64,000 bases of DNA from an uncultured Candidatus Saccharibacteria bacterium. GTDB taxonomy: Bacteria; Patescibacteriota; Minisyncoccia; Phycocordibacterales; DATDWN01. The DNA lies in the NCBI GenBank assembly GCA_964603545.1, contig CAZRVD010000001.1, forward strand, positions 68,358-132,357, written 5' to 3'. Under the pieces are notes generated by a model. It made no database searches. It was not told the DNA's origin and worked only from the letters and a program-made list of their open reading frames with translations. The translations under genes were made by a program, and so were the position numbers. Shown in pieces: positions 10,137 to 41,677 of this stretch (position 1 is the stretch's first letter; every line of letters begins with the position of its first letter).

Positions 10137-11048
10137 ATGGCAAACAGGCACCTTTCAAGATCAATAGTCTTACAATCGCTCTTTGAGTGGGATTTTAATT
10201 CCAAAAATTCTGAAGAGGCGACATCTATCTTTAATCGTGATGTACTAGAATTTGCCCCAGGTACAAATGATATGTCTTTCATGGAAGGTCTCATGAAGGG
10301 TGTTTTAGAGAAACAAAAAGATATAGATTTAATAATAGAAAAAGCTGCTCCTGACTGGCCAATAGATAAAATAAGTGTGATGGATAGAAATATCCTCCGA
10401 ATAGGCCTCTACGAACTACTTTTCTCTGAACGCTCACAAGTACCTCCAAAAGTTGCTATAAATGAAGCAATTGAACTTTCCAAAGCTTTTGGAGGAGAAA
10501 CTTCAAGTAAATTTGTAAACGGAGTTTTGGGCGCGGTGTACAAAGAACTTGGAGAGCCCGGGAAAGAAGAGACAAGTAAAAATAAAAATAATAAATCTTT
10601 TAGTGGAGCTCCTGTTGCCACAGAAAATCTTGGTGGTGCCGTTGTTTATGCAAAAGATGGGGAAGATATTTATCTAGCACTAGTTCACGATGTTTTTGGA
10701 CGTTGGACATTGTCCAAGGGTAAGATTGCTAACACACCAGAGACTGTTGGCGAAACATTAAAAGAGGGAACGGTAAGAGGGATAAAGGAAGAACTTGGTT
10801 TGGATGTAGAAATCAAAGAAAAGTTGGGTGATAACGAGTATATTGCATATCATCCAGAAAAGGGAAAGATAAAAAAGCACGTTACTTTCTTTTTGGCTGA
10901 GTCGCCATTTAACGATATTGTAAGAGAAGAGAAGGGGGGGCTAGATGATGCAAAATGGTTCAAACTTGCTGACATCCTTGATTTAAATTTTTATAACGAT
11001 ATACTACCTCTCGTGACCAAGGCGATTAACTTATTACTGAAGAAATAG
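10137..11048 (+). CDS. nusB: NusB antitermination factor fused to a C-terminal Nudix hydrolase domain
   Basis: N-terminal ~140 aa are NusB-like (SRSIVLQSLFEWDFN, LRIGLYELLF). C-terminal ~150 aa carry a Nudix-like box (GRWTLSKGKIANTPETVGETLKEGTVRGIKEELGL: E-x7-R-[G]-I-x-E-E-x-G-L). One continuous 303-aa ORF. Confidence 0.7.
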   Translation: MANRHLSRSIVLQSLFEWDFNSKNSEEATSIFNRDVLEFAPGTNDMSFMEGLMKGVLEKQKDIDLIIEKAAPDWPIDKISVMDRNILRIGLYELLFSERSQVPPKVAINEAIELSKAFGGETSSKFVNGVLGAVYKELGEPGKEETSKNKNNKSFSGAPVATENLGGAVVYAKDGEDIYLALVHDVFGRWTLSKGKIANTPETVGETLKEGTVRGIKEELGLDVEIKEKLGDNEYIAYHPEKGKIKKHVTFFLAESPFNDIVREEKGGLDDAKWFKLADILDLNFYNDILPLVTKAINLLLKK

Positions 11049-11148
11049 ATACGAATATGGGAACAAGGAAAATTACGAATATATACGAATAGAATTCATT
11101 CGCATACATTCGTAATTGTATTTGATTTCATTCGTATCTCAATCACAT
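11048..11148 (+). promoter_or_regulatory. three-level nested inverted repeat of the heptamer TACGAAT/ATTCGTA in the rnc leader
   Basis: GATACGAAT...ATTACGAAT..TACGAAT-agaattc-ATTCGCA..ATTCGTAAT...ATTCGTATC. It could fold as one ~95-nt interrupted hairpin ending 8 nt before the rnc ATG. Confidence 0.55.
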
Positions 11149-11839
11149 GCAACCAGACTTAAAAGAATTTCAAAAATCCATAGGAATTACGTTCACTGAT
11201 GCGTCACTAATCACGCAGGCTTTTGTGCATCGTTCATATATAAACGAAAACAAACAGTCGGGGCTAAGTCATAACGAAAGATTGGAGTTTTTGGGAGACG
11301 CAGTTCTAGAACTTGTTATTACAGATTTTTTATACAAAAAATATACAGACAAAGCAGAGGGTGAACTTACCGCGTACAGGTCAGCTTTGGTAAACGCAGA
11401 TACTTGCGCTGGGATAGCTACAAAACTTGGAATGGATCAGTACCTCATGCTTTCAAAAGGTGAGAGTAAAGACACTGGAAGAGCAAGACAGTATATATTA
11501 GCAAATGCACTTGAGGCTCTTATTGGTGCAATTTATTTAGACCAAGGATTAGAAAAAGCACACGAATTTATAGAAAAGAATTTTACTCCAATGATTGAAA
11601 AAATTATTTTGGAAGGAAGTCATGTAGACAGCAAGAGTTTGTTTCAGGAAAAAGCACAAGAATTTGATGGTATCACTCCAGCCTACAAAACAATAAAAGA
11701 GTCAGGCCCAGATCATGAGAAAAAATTTACAGTTGGTGTTTATCTTGGCAAAGAGCTGGTTGCGACTGGTGAGGGGGAGTCAAAACAAGATGCAGAGCAA
11801 GAGGCGGCGGAGGAAGCACTATCTAAACGAGGTTGGTAG
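11147..11839 (+). CDS. rnc: ribonuclease III
   Basis: RNase III signature NERLEFLGDAVLELVI. C-terminal dsRBD. 230 aa. Confidence 0.9.
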   Translation: MQPDLKEFQKSIGITFTDASLITQAFVHRSYINENKQSGLSHNERLEFLGDAVLELVITDFLYKKYTDKAEGELTAYRSALVNADTCAGIATKLGMDQYLMLSKGESKDTGRARQYILANALEALIGAIYLDQGLEKAHEFIEKNFTPMIEKIILEGSHVDSKSLFQEKAQEFDGITPAYKTIKESGPDHEKKFTVGVYLGKELVATGEGESKQDAEQEAAEEALSKRGW

Positions 11840-11846
11840 GTGGCTT

Positions 11847-11957
11847 TCAAATTTGGCGAACTTCTCGTTCCCAAATTAAAAATACTCATCACCTTACTAC
11901 TTGTAAGGCTCTTCGTCTTTTTAATTTCTCTCGTCGGATTTCACTCAAATTTGAAAG
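11847..11957 (+). repeat. intergenic long-hairpin repeat family 1, copy 1 (after rnc)
   Basis: Terminal CAAATTTG/CAAATTTG, an AU-rich inverted flank (AAAATTAAAAATA / TTTTTAATTT) and apical CCTTAC-TACTT-GTAAGG. Homologous to the copies at 18157, 36238, 39505 and 51402. Confidence 0.7.
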
Positions 11958-18156: not shown

Positions 18157-18269
18157 CCAAATCTGGCGAACTCCTAGTCTCAAATTTAAAAATATTCGGC
18201 ACCTTACTACCTGTAAGGCTTCTCACATTTTCAAATTCTCAACGTCGGATTTCATCCAGATTGTGAAAG
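18157..18269 (+). repeat. long-hairpin repeat family 1, copy 2 (after the KH gene)
   Basis: 5' CCAAATCTGG, 3' CCAGATTGTG (compensatory to the 5' end), apical CCTTAC-TACCT-GTAAGG. Confidence 0.7.
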
Positions 18270-25647: not shown

Positions 25648-25707
25648 GTAAAAGAAAAATCGGTGGCCCCGTAGTGGGGCCCCGATCGTTGTGCGCGTGG
25701 CGGGGTG

Positions 25708-25911
25708 TTAATCCCGCCGAATCCTGGCAGAGACTTCCCGGGAAGGATCCTCCGAACTCCAGGCCCGGATGGGTGCCTGCCCAGGGAGTCGGCGGCTTGC
25801 CGACACGCTGTCGCGCGACCGTGGGAAGGGCTTCCCGGGATTGTCGCTGGGGAGTGTGACTCCTCGGCAGATTACACCGAAGATGGGACGGTTTCCGTTG
25901 ACGTCAGGCAT
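25708..25911 (-). CDS. hypothetical Pro/Arg/Ser-rich 67-aa protein in a ~65% GC, hairpin-dense segment (cassette F)
   Basis: Minus-strand ATG at 25911 preceded by AGGAG (8 nt) and a TTGACA-N17-TAAGAT promoter. The protein MPDVNGNRPIFGVICRG...SRDSVSASRRLPG is low complexity. Coding status is uncertain. Confidence 0.3.
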   Translation of the reverse strand: MPDVNGNRPIFGVICRGVTLPSDNPGKPFPRSRDSVSASRRLPGQAPIRAWSSEDPSREVSARIRRD

Positions 25912-36237: not shown

Positions 36238-36347
36238 TCCAAATTTGGCCAATTTCTTTGTCAGAGTTCAAAAAATAATTCTCACCGTACTAGTTGTACG
36301 ACTCGAATTATTTTTATCCTCTTTCGCGAAATTGTCTCAAATTTGAA
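36238..36347 (+). repeat. long-hairpin repeat family 1, copy 3 (after rpoC)
   Basis: Terminal CAAATTTGG / CAAATTTG. Apical helix is CGTAC-tagtt-GTACG (compensatory relative to CCTTAC/GTAAGG). Confidence 0.65.
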
Positions 36348-39504: not shown

Positions 39505-39595
39505 ACTCAATCTCATCTTCTAAAATTTGAAAATAATCATCACCTTACTACTTGTAAGGCTCTTCATATTTTAAAATTTTATAAGCGACCTTGAG
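39505..39595 (+). repeat. long-hairpin repeat family 1, copy 4 (after rpoD)
   Basis: Its own terminal helix GCTCgGGTC / GACCttGAGC. Shared core TCTAAAATTTGAAAATAATCATCACCTTACTACTTGTAAGGCTCTTCATATTTTAAAATTTTATAAGCGACC. Confidence 0.65.
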
Positions 39596-39626: not shown

Positions 39627-39704
39627 AATACAAGAACACTCTCAATTGAGAGTGTTCTTGTATTGACAAAAGGAAATAATTATGCTAGTGTCTTGCGCAG
39701 GAGG
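39627..39704 (+). promoter_or_regulatory. 32-bp perfect palindrome abutting a TTGACA promoter (cassette G)
   Basis: ACAAGAACACTCTC-AATT-GAGAGTGTTCTTGT at 39627-39658, then TTGACA(39662-67)-N17-TAGTGT, then AGGAGG at 39699-704. Confidence 0.5.
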
Positions 39705-39742
39705 GGATTTTCCCCTTGCATTAGACCAGAAAGGTTACTACG

Positions 39743-40408
39743 TTGAAAACACTCCGTATTGTCATGGCGATGACTCTGTTCTCTCTCACTTCCTTCGCTT
39801 CGGCGACGGCGCAGGACGGAGGATACAAGGTTTCGGCGATTTCTGTCGGTTCGGGGGAAACCCCGATCTCCGGCGGGATCTCCGCTTCAGTCGATCTGAC
39901 GACCGAAAGTGGCGGATTCATGCAGGTCATGGTTCAATCTGAGCAGGCTTGGTTCATGATTGGCAAGGACTGGAAGTTCTCTCGCTCCCGTTGCAGTTTC
40001 TACGGTTCAGTGGGGCATTTCCAGTCGGCGCCGTGGGTGGGTCCGTACGCGGGTTGTACCCTTGTTCTGGCCAACCTTGGTGGGCAGGAGGTTTCTATCA
40101 GTGCTCTGACTTGGCCCGGCTTTTACATCGGTTGGGAGCCGAAGAACTGGCGCACAGCCGAGGATGGGGTGGAGAATCCGGAGTCCTTGAAGGCTGGGTA
40201 TTTCTCGGTTGCCTCGCTCAATCTCGGGAGGGTTTCGGTGAGCATCGCTCATTTGAACTTTTTGGACGACAAGACCAACATCCTTCCGGGCGTCGCATAC
40301 ACCCAGAAGGTGCGTAGTGACATGGATGTCAGCGGGAGTTTCACTTGGAACTCCAACTCTGACTCCCCGATGTTCTTCGTTGGTGCATCATGGCATCCGA
40401 AGAAGTAG
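39743..40408 (+). CDS. secreted beta-rich protein (possible beta-barrel or adhesin-like), high-GC cassette G, TTG start
   Basis: Signal peptide KTLRIVMAMTLFSLTSFASATAQD, then alternating-hydrophobic beta-strand-like sequence. GC well above the backbone. Only TTG is in frame upstream, after GAAAGG. Confidence 0.45.
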   Translation: MKTLRIVMAMTLFSLTSFASATAQDGGYKVSAISVGSGETPISGGISASVDLTTESGGFMQVMVQSEQAWFMIGKDWKFSRSRCSFYGSVGHFQSAPWVGPYAGCTLVLANLGGQEVSISALTWPGFYIGWEPKNWRTAEDGVENPESLKAGYFSVASLNLGRVSVSIAHLNFLDDKTNILPGVAYTQKVRSDMDVSGSFTWNSNSDSPMFFVGASWHPKK

Positions 40409-40427
40409 AGCGACTAGCTTCGTGTAC

Positions 40428-40470
40428 GGCAGGACACCCGAGTGGGGGTCCTGCCGGCGCGGAGTTTTTT
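40428..40470 (+). terminator. rho-independent terminator of cassette G
   Basis: GGCAGGAC-acccgagtgggg-GTCCTGCC ggcgcggagTTTTTT. Confidence 0.6.
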
Positions 40471-40549
40471 GATACCTGAAATTATCCACAAGGGGTTTAA
40501 AAAATCTTCATGTTAGTATTGATACGGAAAGTCTGAGAGGGGAGGTGAC

Positions 40550-40753
40550 ATGGAGAAGTGTCCGGATTGTGAGGGTCCTGTCGGTGTGCTCATGAACTAT
40601 TATATTTGTAGGGGTCAGTGTGACGGCAAACTTTTGTTGCACACTGATCCAGATGAAAACAGGAAGGAGATGAGAAGGAGAGGGGCTCTTCTTCAAGTTA
40701 GCCACACGGATGAGGACGTAGTACACTTCGTCAGTCGAACACCCAAAGTCTAG
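40550..40753 (+). CDS. small zinc-ribbon-like protein, high-GC cassette H
   Basis: CPDCEG...CRGQC (CxxC-N16-CxxxC). RBS GGGGAGGTGA. 67 aa. Confidence 0.4.
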   Translation: MEKCPDCEGPVGVLMNYYICRGQCDGKLLLHTDPDENRKEMRRRGALLQVSHTDEDVVHFVSRTPKV

Positions 40754-40798
40754 TCTTGTCATGGTGGAGTCGTTTTGTGACTCCACCCGCAAGGCCTG

Positions 40799-40831
40799 CC
40801 CCGTAGTAGAGATACTCTACCGGGGTTTTTT
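40799..40831 (+). terminator. terminator of cassette H
   Basis: CCCCGTAGTAGAG-atac-TCTACCGGGG TTTTTTCG. Preceded by a second hairpin GGTGGAGTC-gttttgt-GACTCCACC at 40763-40787. Confidence 0.55.
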
Positions 40832-40853
40832 CGTATTAAAAAGTATATGAGAA

Positions 40854-40877
40854 GGCCCCGGGGTTGATTCCGGGGCC
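40854..40877 (-). terminator. terminator of the minus-strand coiled-coil gene
   Basis: GGCCCCGG-ggttgatt-CCGGGGCC, followed on the minus strand by TTCTCATATACTTTTTAAT. Confidence 0.5.
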
Positions 40878-40905
40878 TGGTATTCGATGTCGCAACTTGC
40901 GCTTC

Positions 40906-41542
40906 CTACTTCTTCTTCGTCAGGAGCGCACGAAGCGCGTCAGCTTTGCTCTTGCGCGCGGCCATCAGGACCGCGCGCTGTTCGGTTCCGGAGGGTCGAG
41001 GCGTGGCGACCACCACGGCGGGGTTTGCGACCTTCGCCTTGTTCGCGACTTCTCGCTGAACCCGACGTACCTGGTCGCGCTTCTTCTGCTCGACTTCGGC
41101 CTCGTCGACTGCGTTCGCCAGTGCGTTGTAGGCGTTGATGCGAAGTTCGAATGTGCCGTTCAGTTCTGCGCTGACTGCGCTGACGAGCTCAGCCTGGAGC
41201 TTCTGGAGGCGTTCGATGAGGTCCTTGTCGTAGCCCTCCTCGTCGCGCAGGCGGTTGATGATCTTGGTGAAGCGTGCCGTCTGCACCTGGTTGCCCTCGA
41301 GTGGCTTGTCGGTGACCGAGTAGCGCAGGAAGGCTCGGAGCTTGCCGTGTTCCGGTCGACACGATATCGGCCCCGATGACGATCGCCTTCTCGTTCTCGC
41401 CTTCCTCGATGGCGTCCGCCATCGCCAGGATGTAGCTGTCGATGGGGTTGCCGATCTGGAAATCGCGCGTCTTGCTCATCGCGCCCATGATTTCCGCGAC
41501 CGCTTCCTGAGACTGTTCGAAGGTCATTGTCGTCTTGGCCAT
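40906..41542 (-). pseudogene. GC-rich alpha-helical/coiled-coil protein gene interrupted by a frameshift near 41330-41360 (cassette I)
   Basis: ORF 41189..41542 is protein-like for about 62 aa (MAKTTMTFEQSQEAVAEIMGAMSKTRDFQIG...AIVIGADIVS) and then becomes P/R/G-rich junk. The +1 frame continues protein-like (EHGKLRAFLRYSVTDKPLEGNQVQTARFTKIINRL...) into ORF 40906..41286. The plus-strand ORF 40864..41379 is an antisense artefact. Confidence 0.5.
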
Positions 41543-41609
41543 ATCGGACTCCGTTCTATGAAGGTACTGCTTTTCTGAGGGCGAAATGCCGTTCAGATCT
41601 AACTAGACG

Positions 41610-41638
41610 TAGTGTAGCATGCTATGCAAAAAATGTCA
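41610..41638 (-). promoter_or_regulatory. promoter of cassette I (minus: TTGACA-N17-TACACT, with TAGCATGCTA palindrome in the spacer)
   Basis: The reverse complement reads TTGACAttttttgcatagcatgcTACACT...GGAGtccgatATG. Confidence 0.5.
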
Positions 41639-41677
41639 ATAGATTAAACATACACTAAAAAATGCTATTCTATAACC

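Follow-up and report, generated by a model that had tools for sequence, protein, structure and literature searches.

A CGAAT-array palindrome in the nusB-rnc spacer of an uncultured Candidatus Saccharibacteria bacterium: dispersed repeat or RNase III autoregulatory hairpin?

The spacer directly upstream of rnc, the gene for RNase III, is filled with inverted copies of the heptamer TACGAAT in an uncultured Candidatus Saccharibacteria bacterium, and this raises the question whether the hairpin serves RNase III to regulate its own message or has become lodged there as a repeat. The DNA analyzed, called the window below, is a stretch of 64,000 nucleotides (contig CAZRVD010000001.1, positions 68,358 to 132,357), and all coordinates given without a locus name refer to it. 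The original prediction had favored an RNase III autoregulatory hairpin, with an operator for a dimeric regulator as the alternative. The reading that we prefer, with about even confidence, is that the palindrome at 11047-11139 is the local copy of a dispersed family of intergenic (C)RCGAAT arrays, similar to repetitive extragenic palindromes (REP, REPIN), which is tolerated in an operon junction.

Structure of the palindrome between nusB and rnc

The hairpin had been described as occupying an entire spacer of 100 bp and as ending 8 nt before the rnc start codon. A hairpin of 93 nt indeed fills the spacer, which is 98 nt long (from the stop codon TAG of the upstream open reading frame at 11046-11048 to the rnc ATG at 11147), and the distance between the stem and the start codon was found to be 7 nt. 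The elements of the palindrome are as follows.

11047 to 11139, no strand assigned: whole palindrome, one interrupted hairpin, each arm of which has three (T)ACGAAT units (forward in the left arm, inverted in the right) and a degenerate fourth
11047 to 11056: outer left arm AGATACGAAT, 10 nt, 100% complementary to 11130-11139
11050 to 11056, + strand: unit 1, TACGAAT, outer left, exact match
11074 to 11080, + strand: unit 2, TACGAAT, middle left, exact match
11084 to 11090, + strand: unit 3, TACGAAT, inner left, 10 nt after unit 2
11091 to 11097, no strand assigned: apical loop AGAATTC of the predicted fold, including GAATTC at 11092-11097
11098 to 11104, + strand: unit 3', ATTCGCA, which gives an A·C mismatch in the + strand RNA and a G·U pair in the - strand RNA
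11108 to 11114, + strand: unit 2', ATTCGTA, 10 nt after unit 3'
11120 to 11125, + strand: degenerate unit ATTTGA of the right arm, spaced 12 nt from unit 2' and 10 nt from unit 1'
11130 to 11136, + strand: unit 1', ATTCGTA, outer right, within the outer arm 11130-11139 (ATTCGTATCT)

The predicted arrangement of three direct and three inverted units was thus recovered, with five exact heptamers (+ strand at 11050, 11074 and 11084, - strand at 11108-11114 and 11130-11136) and the imperfect sixth unit ATTCGCA. The units are spaced at 10 and about 12 nt, and positions 11063-11068 of the left arm are a loose mirror of the degenerate ATTTGA (ATTCGCATACATTCGTA versus ATTTGATTTCATTCGTA, 76%). Five of the eight exact TACGAAT copies of the window are located in the spacer, while 7.1 are expected window-wide.

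The folding energy, which had been proposed as a check, bore out the structure. The + strand RNA of the spacer folds at -31.7 kcal/mol (z -6.5), and none of 200 shuffled sequences was as good (-14.2 +/- 2.7 kcal/mol). The - strand RNA reaches -38.1 kcal/mol (z -7.6), and the + strand folded as DNA -19.0 kcal/mol (z -5.0). The in silico fold contains 36 pairs and amounts to a double helix of at least about two turns; its longest unbroken runs are 10 and 8 bp, and two A·C interruptions are present in the inner stem, the arms of which are 11071-11090 and 11098-11117. The base of the hairpin overlaps the nusB stop codon, as its first two bases are the final AG of TAG. The stem is A+T-rich, and the 7 nt that separate it from the rnc ATG read CAATCAC, in which no Shine-Dalgarno-like sequence is visible. 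The G·U-type mismatches of the palindrome number 4 on the + strand and 3 on the - strand.

A search of the spacer against Rfam 15 revealed no family, only weak look-alikes of microRNA precursors, the best with 24.6 bits versus a cut-off of 80. Likewise, no family was found when the whole window, the loci of 20 relatives and the X element were searched. An eleven-codon mini-open reading frame (MGTRKITNIYE, 11057-11092) lies in the left arm and is not conserved in relatives.

A dispersed family of CGAAT arrays

The architecture was searched for irrespective of gene context with the pattern CGAATN{3,4}RCGAATN{3,33}ATTCGYNNNNATTCG, i.e., two forward units, a gap, and two inverted units. The metagenome scan yielded at least 120 loci, and the family statistics below rest on the matches listed; relatives of rnc or nusB are encoded at none of these. 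The same pattern matched 24 loci of a viral collection, about 18 of them independent. In this collection three control 5-mers gave 5, 5 and 6 loci (5, 3 and 1 independent), and the reversed unit order (ATTCG, then CGAAT) gave 11 loci (about 3 independent). These low counts show that the CGAAT core and its orientation are specific, and the presence of the same architecture at so many metagenomic and viral loci away from rnc and nusB argues that it is not a device specific to rnc.

The matches share features that the pattern does not impose. Usually at least three units are present per arm, and a C at position -2 extends the unit to C[A/G]CGAAT. Of 497 pairs of neighboring units, 265 have a period of 10 nt and 107 one of 9 nt, 372 in all. 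The outermost units are preceded by CC, so that the ends read (A/G)(A/G)CC[AG]CGAAT. The order is always CGAAT units followed by ATTCG units around a loop of variable length, and the gap between the half-arrays ranges from -2 to 33 nt. Also the variable spacers between the cores match between the two arms, at 66% within one element versus 39% between elements. The window element was assigned to this family because it agrees with it in the core, in the order and phase of the units, in the complementarity of the arms and in its tight position between two cistrons; the T before its ACGAAT recurs in other low-GC examples.

The loci range from 34 to 67% GC. Sites of low-GC copies are the dnaX-ybaB and gyrB-nusG intervals, the neighborhood of pyk and groEL, and the region 5' of mraZ; these copies are termed CPR-like (candidate phyla radiation) solely on the basis of their GC content and their small-genome housekeeping gene content. 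One contig (L133) belongs to the Acidobacteriota according to its NuoL and carries the element 3' of the nuoH stop codon. At this site the element is kept in a relative with 88% NuoL identity and absent in one with 93%, and the orthologous copy in L261 has one extra 10-nt unit and a tandem duplicate. In L261 (12800-13100) the duplicated segment comprises the last ~25 nt of nuoH together with the CGAAT palindrome. Several of the copies on viral contigs lie between co-directional structural genes. Upstream of mraZ in L103 (4736-4870), the palindrome just 5' of the gene is followed by GTGGT-N4-GTGGC, which resembles MraZ boxes, and by the perfect DnaA-box-like sequence TTATCCAC.

Among the matches listed, 44 elements are flanked by co-directional, 13 by convergent and 9 by divergent genes (about 14%), and clustering of the flanking proteins revealed no recurrent neighbor family. 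Some contigs carry two to four arrays. Similar intergenic copies in unrelated flanks, which are typical of REP-like sequences, were found at the family level: L167 and L174 are 86% identical over 73 nt, L104 and L136 90% over 60 nt, and L123 and L160 98% over 40 nt, each pair with non-homologous flanks. Furthermore, the element at the nusB-rnc junction of locus L018 has the 17-nt string ATTCGTAGCCATTCGTA in common with L123 and L160, which are both from other contexts. A cut-and-paste element of the miniature inverted-repeat transposable element type was rejected, as direct repeats of 2-8 nt at the palindrome borders did not exceed the chance level in 97 elements.

Across the family, the mismatches between arms comprise 482 transitions and 284 transversions without strand bias. 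G·U-type mismatches show no preference for the sense strand relative to gene direction (104 versus 82, p = 0.12), and this G·U/A·C test therefore assigns no functional RNA strand. Rfam gave no match for 20 family members. BLAST comparison of family members and the window element with plasmid and phage collections also gave none, but BLAST performs poorly with short variable repeats. No description of a CGAAT-palindrome family was found in the literature by motif or by description, and the family is apparently undescribed, a variant of REP-like palindromes with a core common to distant lineages. Another, abundant repeat of ~100 nt, which contains CGAATTTT arrays, is 90-98% identical between contigs, in many pairs with unrelated flanks (L098, L100, L107, L109, L137, L145, L162, L166, L197, L202).

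Transcription context and the nusB-rnc junction in relatives

The genes and signals around the palindrome are the following.

10137 to 11048, + strand: upstream gene, a NusB+NUDIX fusion
10978 to 11005, + strand: sole promoter-like site upstream on this strand, TTGATT-16-TATACT, a consensus match only
11147 to 11839, + strand: rnc, RNase III of 230 aa
11873 to 11927, no strand assigned: terminator-like hairpin directly 3' of rnc

The identification of the upstream gene as nusB holds for its NusB domain, which is fused to a NUDIX domain. The fusion is kept across the clade, including the C-terminal motif LDLNFYNDILP. The RNase III is 100% identical to that in a record of Parcubacteria group bacterium Gr01-1014_46.

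The consensus scan detected neither a sigma-70-like promoter on the + strand between the nusB stop and the rnc ATG nor any terminator on that strand of the spacer. A terminator was called there only on the - strand, where terminator-like and promoter-like calls occur at chance frequency. One of these - strand matches (11142-11115, TTGAGA-16-TACAAT, also at chance frequency) points into the palindrome; a tiny antisense RNA from it is conceivable, in which the inner hairpin and TTTTCCTTGTT would come after the start. The promoter-like site at 10978-11005 lies in the 3' end of nusB, and its transcript would carry the full palindrome as rnc leader. Among 91 related genomes, 35 have a nusB-rnc spacer of at most 30 nt, often 1-15 nt or with overlapping genes, and the spacer of distant relatives measures 1-25 nt, which indicates that the ancestral state was an operon. 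Since no + strand promoter or terminator was called in the spacer and the spacers of distant relatives are short, the palindrome is probably part of the rnc mRNA, transcribed within a nusB-rnc message. The hairpin at 11873-11927 probably marks the end of this unit. It belongs to a multi-copy family of terminator-like hairpins of this genome with the core TCACCTTAC-loop-GTAAGGCTC and flanking A and T runs; further copies are at 39517-39585, 36271-36315 and 18186-18220, and kin are present in L001, L002, L011, L012 and L081.

The junction was compared in 90 rnc loci collected from relatives, among which the spacer is hypervariable. Conservation of the pairing in the leaders of relatives had been expected if the hairpin served rnc, but the TACGAAT array is missing from all ten closest relatives (87-91% RNase III identity), which is half of the outcome named beforehand as speaking against the prediction. 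The palindrome recurs in five other loci with RNase III identities of 64-85%, namely L018, L024, L046, L079 and, in weaker form, L073, and unrelated hairpins are found elsewhere. Including the window, six lineages with RNase III identities of 64-100% carry an [AG]CGAAT array at this junction. The sequence TAGATACGAATAT, from the stop codon onward, is common to the window, L018 and L073.

In seven of the ten closest relatives rnc has a promoter of its own, TTGACT-17-TATTAT, and its leader of ~100 nt, which is conserved, contains a hairpin of 23 bp. The only changes in this hairpin are from U-A to U·G, as a + strand RNA would show, and promoter and leader are kept whichever gene is upstream. This arrangement is a better candidate for E. 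coli-like autoregulation of rnc than the window palindrome. Positions of promoter plus leader hairpin are:

L001, 2880 to 3002
L002, 1998 to 2119
L083, 720 to 842
L084, 2878 to 3002
L086, 1880 to 2002
L090, 1878 to 2002

Others have a leaderless-type rnc promoter (L081, L085), a different long hairpin (L082) or the Y-shaped element described below. In many relatives, among them L023, L025, L031, L036, L081 and L085 (region 30-45 nt before the rnc ATG), an extended -10 box similar to TGTGTTATATT is located only 6-7 nt 5' of the rnc ATG, which suggests that these rnc mRNAs are leaderless or nearly so.

At least five unrelated hairpin sequence types occupy the nusB-rnc junction in this clade. Apart from those described above, a Y-shaped element of ~110 nt (-50 kcal/mol, z -7.8, no Rfam match) occurs in either orientation; the copies in L016 and L019 are 98.8% identical over 82 nt, yet inverted. 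Other palindromes are built from the units AAAGTT (L008, L022; period 8-10 nt) or GAAAATT (L014, L025).

L016, 2866 to 2985, + strand: Y-shaped element; inverted in L019, L026, L028, L033, L088 and L089; also in L004, L010 and L012
L008, 2904 to 2997; L022, 2911 to 3003; L014, 2861 to 2997; also L027 and L025: palindromes of other units

Strongly folded spacers are more common at nusB-rnc than in other spacers of the same loci. Inserts with z <= -6 were found in 11 of 91 nusB-rnc junctions versus 3 of 162 at the two neighboring junctions (Fisher p = 0.001), and inserts with z <= -4 in 18 of 91 versus 15 of 162 (p = 0.02), both values uncorrected for shared ancestry. Over the repeat-built palindromes at nusB-rnc, G·U-type mismatches number 21 on the + strand versus 34 on the - strand (p = 0.10). 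The - strand fold is lower in energy in several relatives, a difference that rests on few transitions.

In a raw sliding-window profile of folding energy along the window, G+C-rich islands predominate, and the profile was therefore not informative. These islands (0.53-0.70 G+C, ~25660-25900 and ~39700-41650, in a genome of about 37% G+C) contain no long ATG-started open reading frames, and Rfam returned nothing for them even at E <= 0.05. Unrecognized structured RNAs or foreign DNA are possible explanations.

Explanations for the palindrome and its meaning for rnc

According to the reading as a REP-like dispersed repeat, the palindrome would have entered a formerly tight nusB-rnc junction and would be tolerated there by virtue of folding on itself. 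The stem bridges the distance from the nusB stop to 7 nt before the rnc ATG, so that the 93-nt insert is looped out and the cistrons are adjacent in the folded mRNA. Transcription together with nusB and rnc would place an interrupted helix of roughly 36 pairs in the rnc message. For bacterial RNase III, a helix of about two turns suffices as substrate, and its sequence matters little. The enzyme would be expected to cut this helix, and a cut would part nusB from rnc and expose the rnc mRNA to decay, which would be a default negative feedback. An effect of the element on rnc is plausible, and any RNase III feedback at this locus is more likely a by-product than the work of a dedicated regulator.

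Several observations weigh against this reading. The two A·C mismatches in the inner stem of the + strand mean that cleavage is not assured. No mobilizing enzyme was found for the family, and no target-site duplication either. Multiple copies in the same genome, as typical of REP sequences, were not seen in the window, where the rnc spacer holds the single cluster of at least four [AG]CGAAT/ATTCG[CT] units. In the units of the CPR variant, T or A replaces the C of the family consensus. Finally, the array was confined to the nusB-rnc junction in about 590 kb of sequence (527 kb from the first 84 rnc loci plus the 64-kb window), and this restriction in six lineages fits selection at the junction better than random lodging.

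The last point favors a dedicated autoregulatory hairpin under selection in the rnc leader, like rncO of E. coli, and the original prediction is upheld insofar as a hairpin lies directly ahead of rnc without an intervening promoter, in a junction where strongly folded inserts, of at least five unrelated sequence types, are overrepresented. In sister lineages, moreover, a promoter is combined with a leader hairpin that varies as a + strand RNA would, and leader cleavage of rnc has a precedent in E. coli. However, a dedicated element is hard to reconcile with its absence from the ten closest relatives and with like architecture at at least 120 loci unrelated to rnc. In addition, a conserved hexamer would be unexpected if the signal were structure only, and the G·U-type mismatches show no + strand preference, either in the window or over the junction palindromes. 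We therefore regard a dedicated hairpin as unlikely.

A similarly doubtful view is that the arrays of CPR-like bacteria, Acidobacteriota and viral contigs form a cross-phylum, hitherto undescribed class of sequence-specific hairpins, whose core, order of units and phase of about one turn are read by a universal cellular machine, and that one copy has been kept as an rnc feedback site in this Parcubacteria clade. Such a reader may be RNase III, if it recognizes phased boxes, or RNA polymerase, if it pauses at the CGYG that recurs every 10 nt in the 3' arm. The consensus elemental pause is G-10, Y-1, G+1. Speculatively, ATTCG-Y-G every 10 nt in the 3' arm would present this consensus once per unit on either strand; the CPR variant of the unit lacks the final G. 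Boxes for RNase III or a hairpin-recognizing transposase may equally explain the recurrent core.

That a protein binds the phased RCGAAT units as an operator or iteron-like array, and so controls rnc or local DNA transactions, appears quite improbable. The conserved core, the fixed unit order and the phase of 9-10 bp, about one turn of DNA, are what such an array would show, and the absence of a sense-strand preference among G·U-type mismatches agrees with a feature at the DNA level; in L046 and L018, right-arm units overlap promoter-like sequences of rnc. A central gap that varies as widely as reported above is, however, poorly suited to a fixed complex on linear DNA, the arms are complementary also in their variable spacers, and the protein would be needed in CPR-like bacteria, Acidobacteriota and phages alike. 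The variable gap and the lack of a recurrent neighbor gene, which could have been its cognate gene, also weaken the operator for a dimeric regulator that had been proposed for this spacer.

Very unlikely, too, is a functionless selfish or mutational palindrome that is maintained by hairpin-templated correction and unit slippage and has no effect on rnc. It would account for the ready loss or replacement in close relatives, for the shift in unit number by exact 10-nt steps between L133 and L261, and for the transitions and transversions without strand bias, which resemble neutral decay. It does not account for retention at one junction across lineages with RNase III only 64% identical, nor for conservation of the core across phyla and over the whole GC range of the family. 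Least probable is a terminator or attenuator that ends or lowers nusB transcription before rnc: a strong hairpin does follow the stop codon, the moderately T-rich TGTATTTGATTTC comes after the inner stem, the family flanks are mildly A-rich 5' and T-rich 3', and the Acidobacteriota copy is at the end of the nuo operon, but the site was called on the - strand only and has no G+C-rich stem with a U-tract (a canonical + strand terminator was rejected), no downstream promoter could drive rnc, at least five T within 8 nt after the stem occur in only 4 of 96 family members, and about 14% of the members lie between divergent genes.

At rncO of E. coli, autoregulatory stem-loops for RNase III lie in the rnc 5' leader, as stated in PMC5371410, which cites Bardwell 1989 and Matsunaga 1996. 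The window shares with rncO a stable helix in the RNA just 5' of rnc, which could let RNase III destabilize its own message. Unlike rncO, to which it has no sequence or structural homology, the window helix lies between two cistrons and not after a mapped promoter, consists of a repeated hexamer and is missing in the closest relatives; it is one member of a family that occurs at many loci other than rnc, and its cleavage is predicted.

The REP/BIME and REPIN sequences are repetitive extragenic palindromes (PMC3733652, PMC3116915), the hallmark of REP being a terminal GTAG or CGTC tag or an associated RAYT transposase (PMC3733652). As with these, the CGAAT elements are short, imperfect palindromes in intergenic or intercistronic positions, with unrelated flanks and variable copy number, without target-site duplications, and probably transcribed within operons. 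In contrast to REP, they have no GTAG or CGTC tag (the window end reads AGATACGAAT), no transposase of the RAYT type could be linked to them via neighboring genes, although genomes were not searched for RAYT, and the 64-kb window holds a single copy. Moreover, each CGAAT arm consists of units repeated every 9-10 nt, the core of which is common to several phyla, while REP sequences are lineage-specific.

Correia (NEMIS) elements of Neisseria and the intercistronic sites of phage T7 are hairpins that are processed by RNase III and alter the stability of the flanking mRNA. The CGAAT elements resemble them as intergenic hairpins, and the position of viral-contig copies between co-directional structural genes is similar. 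Defined terminal inverted repeats and TA duplications are typical of Correia elements, and each T7 site is one hairpin with internal loops but without a repeated core, whereas the CGAAT family has a phased repeated core and no target-site duplications. MraZ boxes, omega-repressor heptads and parC iterons are phased short repeats bound by proteins beside their cognate genes at fixed spacing. The CGAAT arrays are similar in that direct and inverted units follow each other at about one helical turn, but they have no cognate neighbor, a variable central gap and fully complementary arms. Besides MraZ boxes, further candidates considered for the motif were NarL heptamers, LexA or parS sites, the RuvC cleavage consensus, and a UUCG mini-hairpin within AUUCGUG.

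Taken together, position and foldability alone are not sufficient to accept self-regulation by RNase III at this locus, where the hairpin appears to be a copy of a generic repeat. The occurrence of one core, order and phase from 34 to 67% GC and on phage-like contigs is unusual, since REP sequences are lineage-specific, and points to a shared mechanism of recognition or generation. The nusB-rnc junction, with its at least five unrelated hairpin types, is a natural system for the question whether bacteria repeatedly recruit long hairpins for feedback by RNase III.

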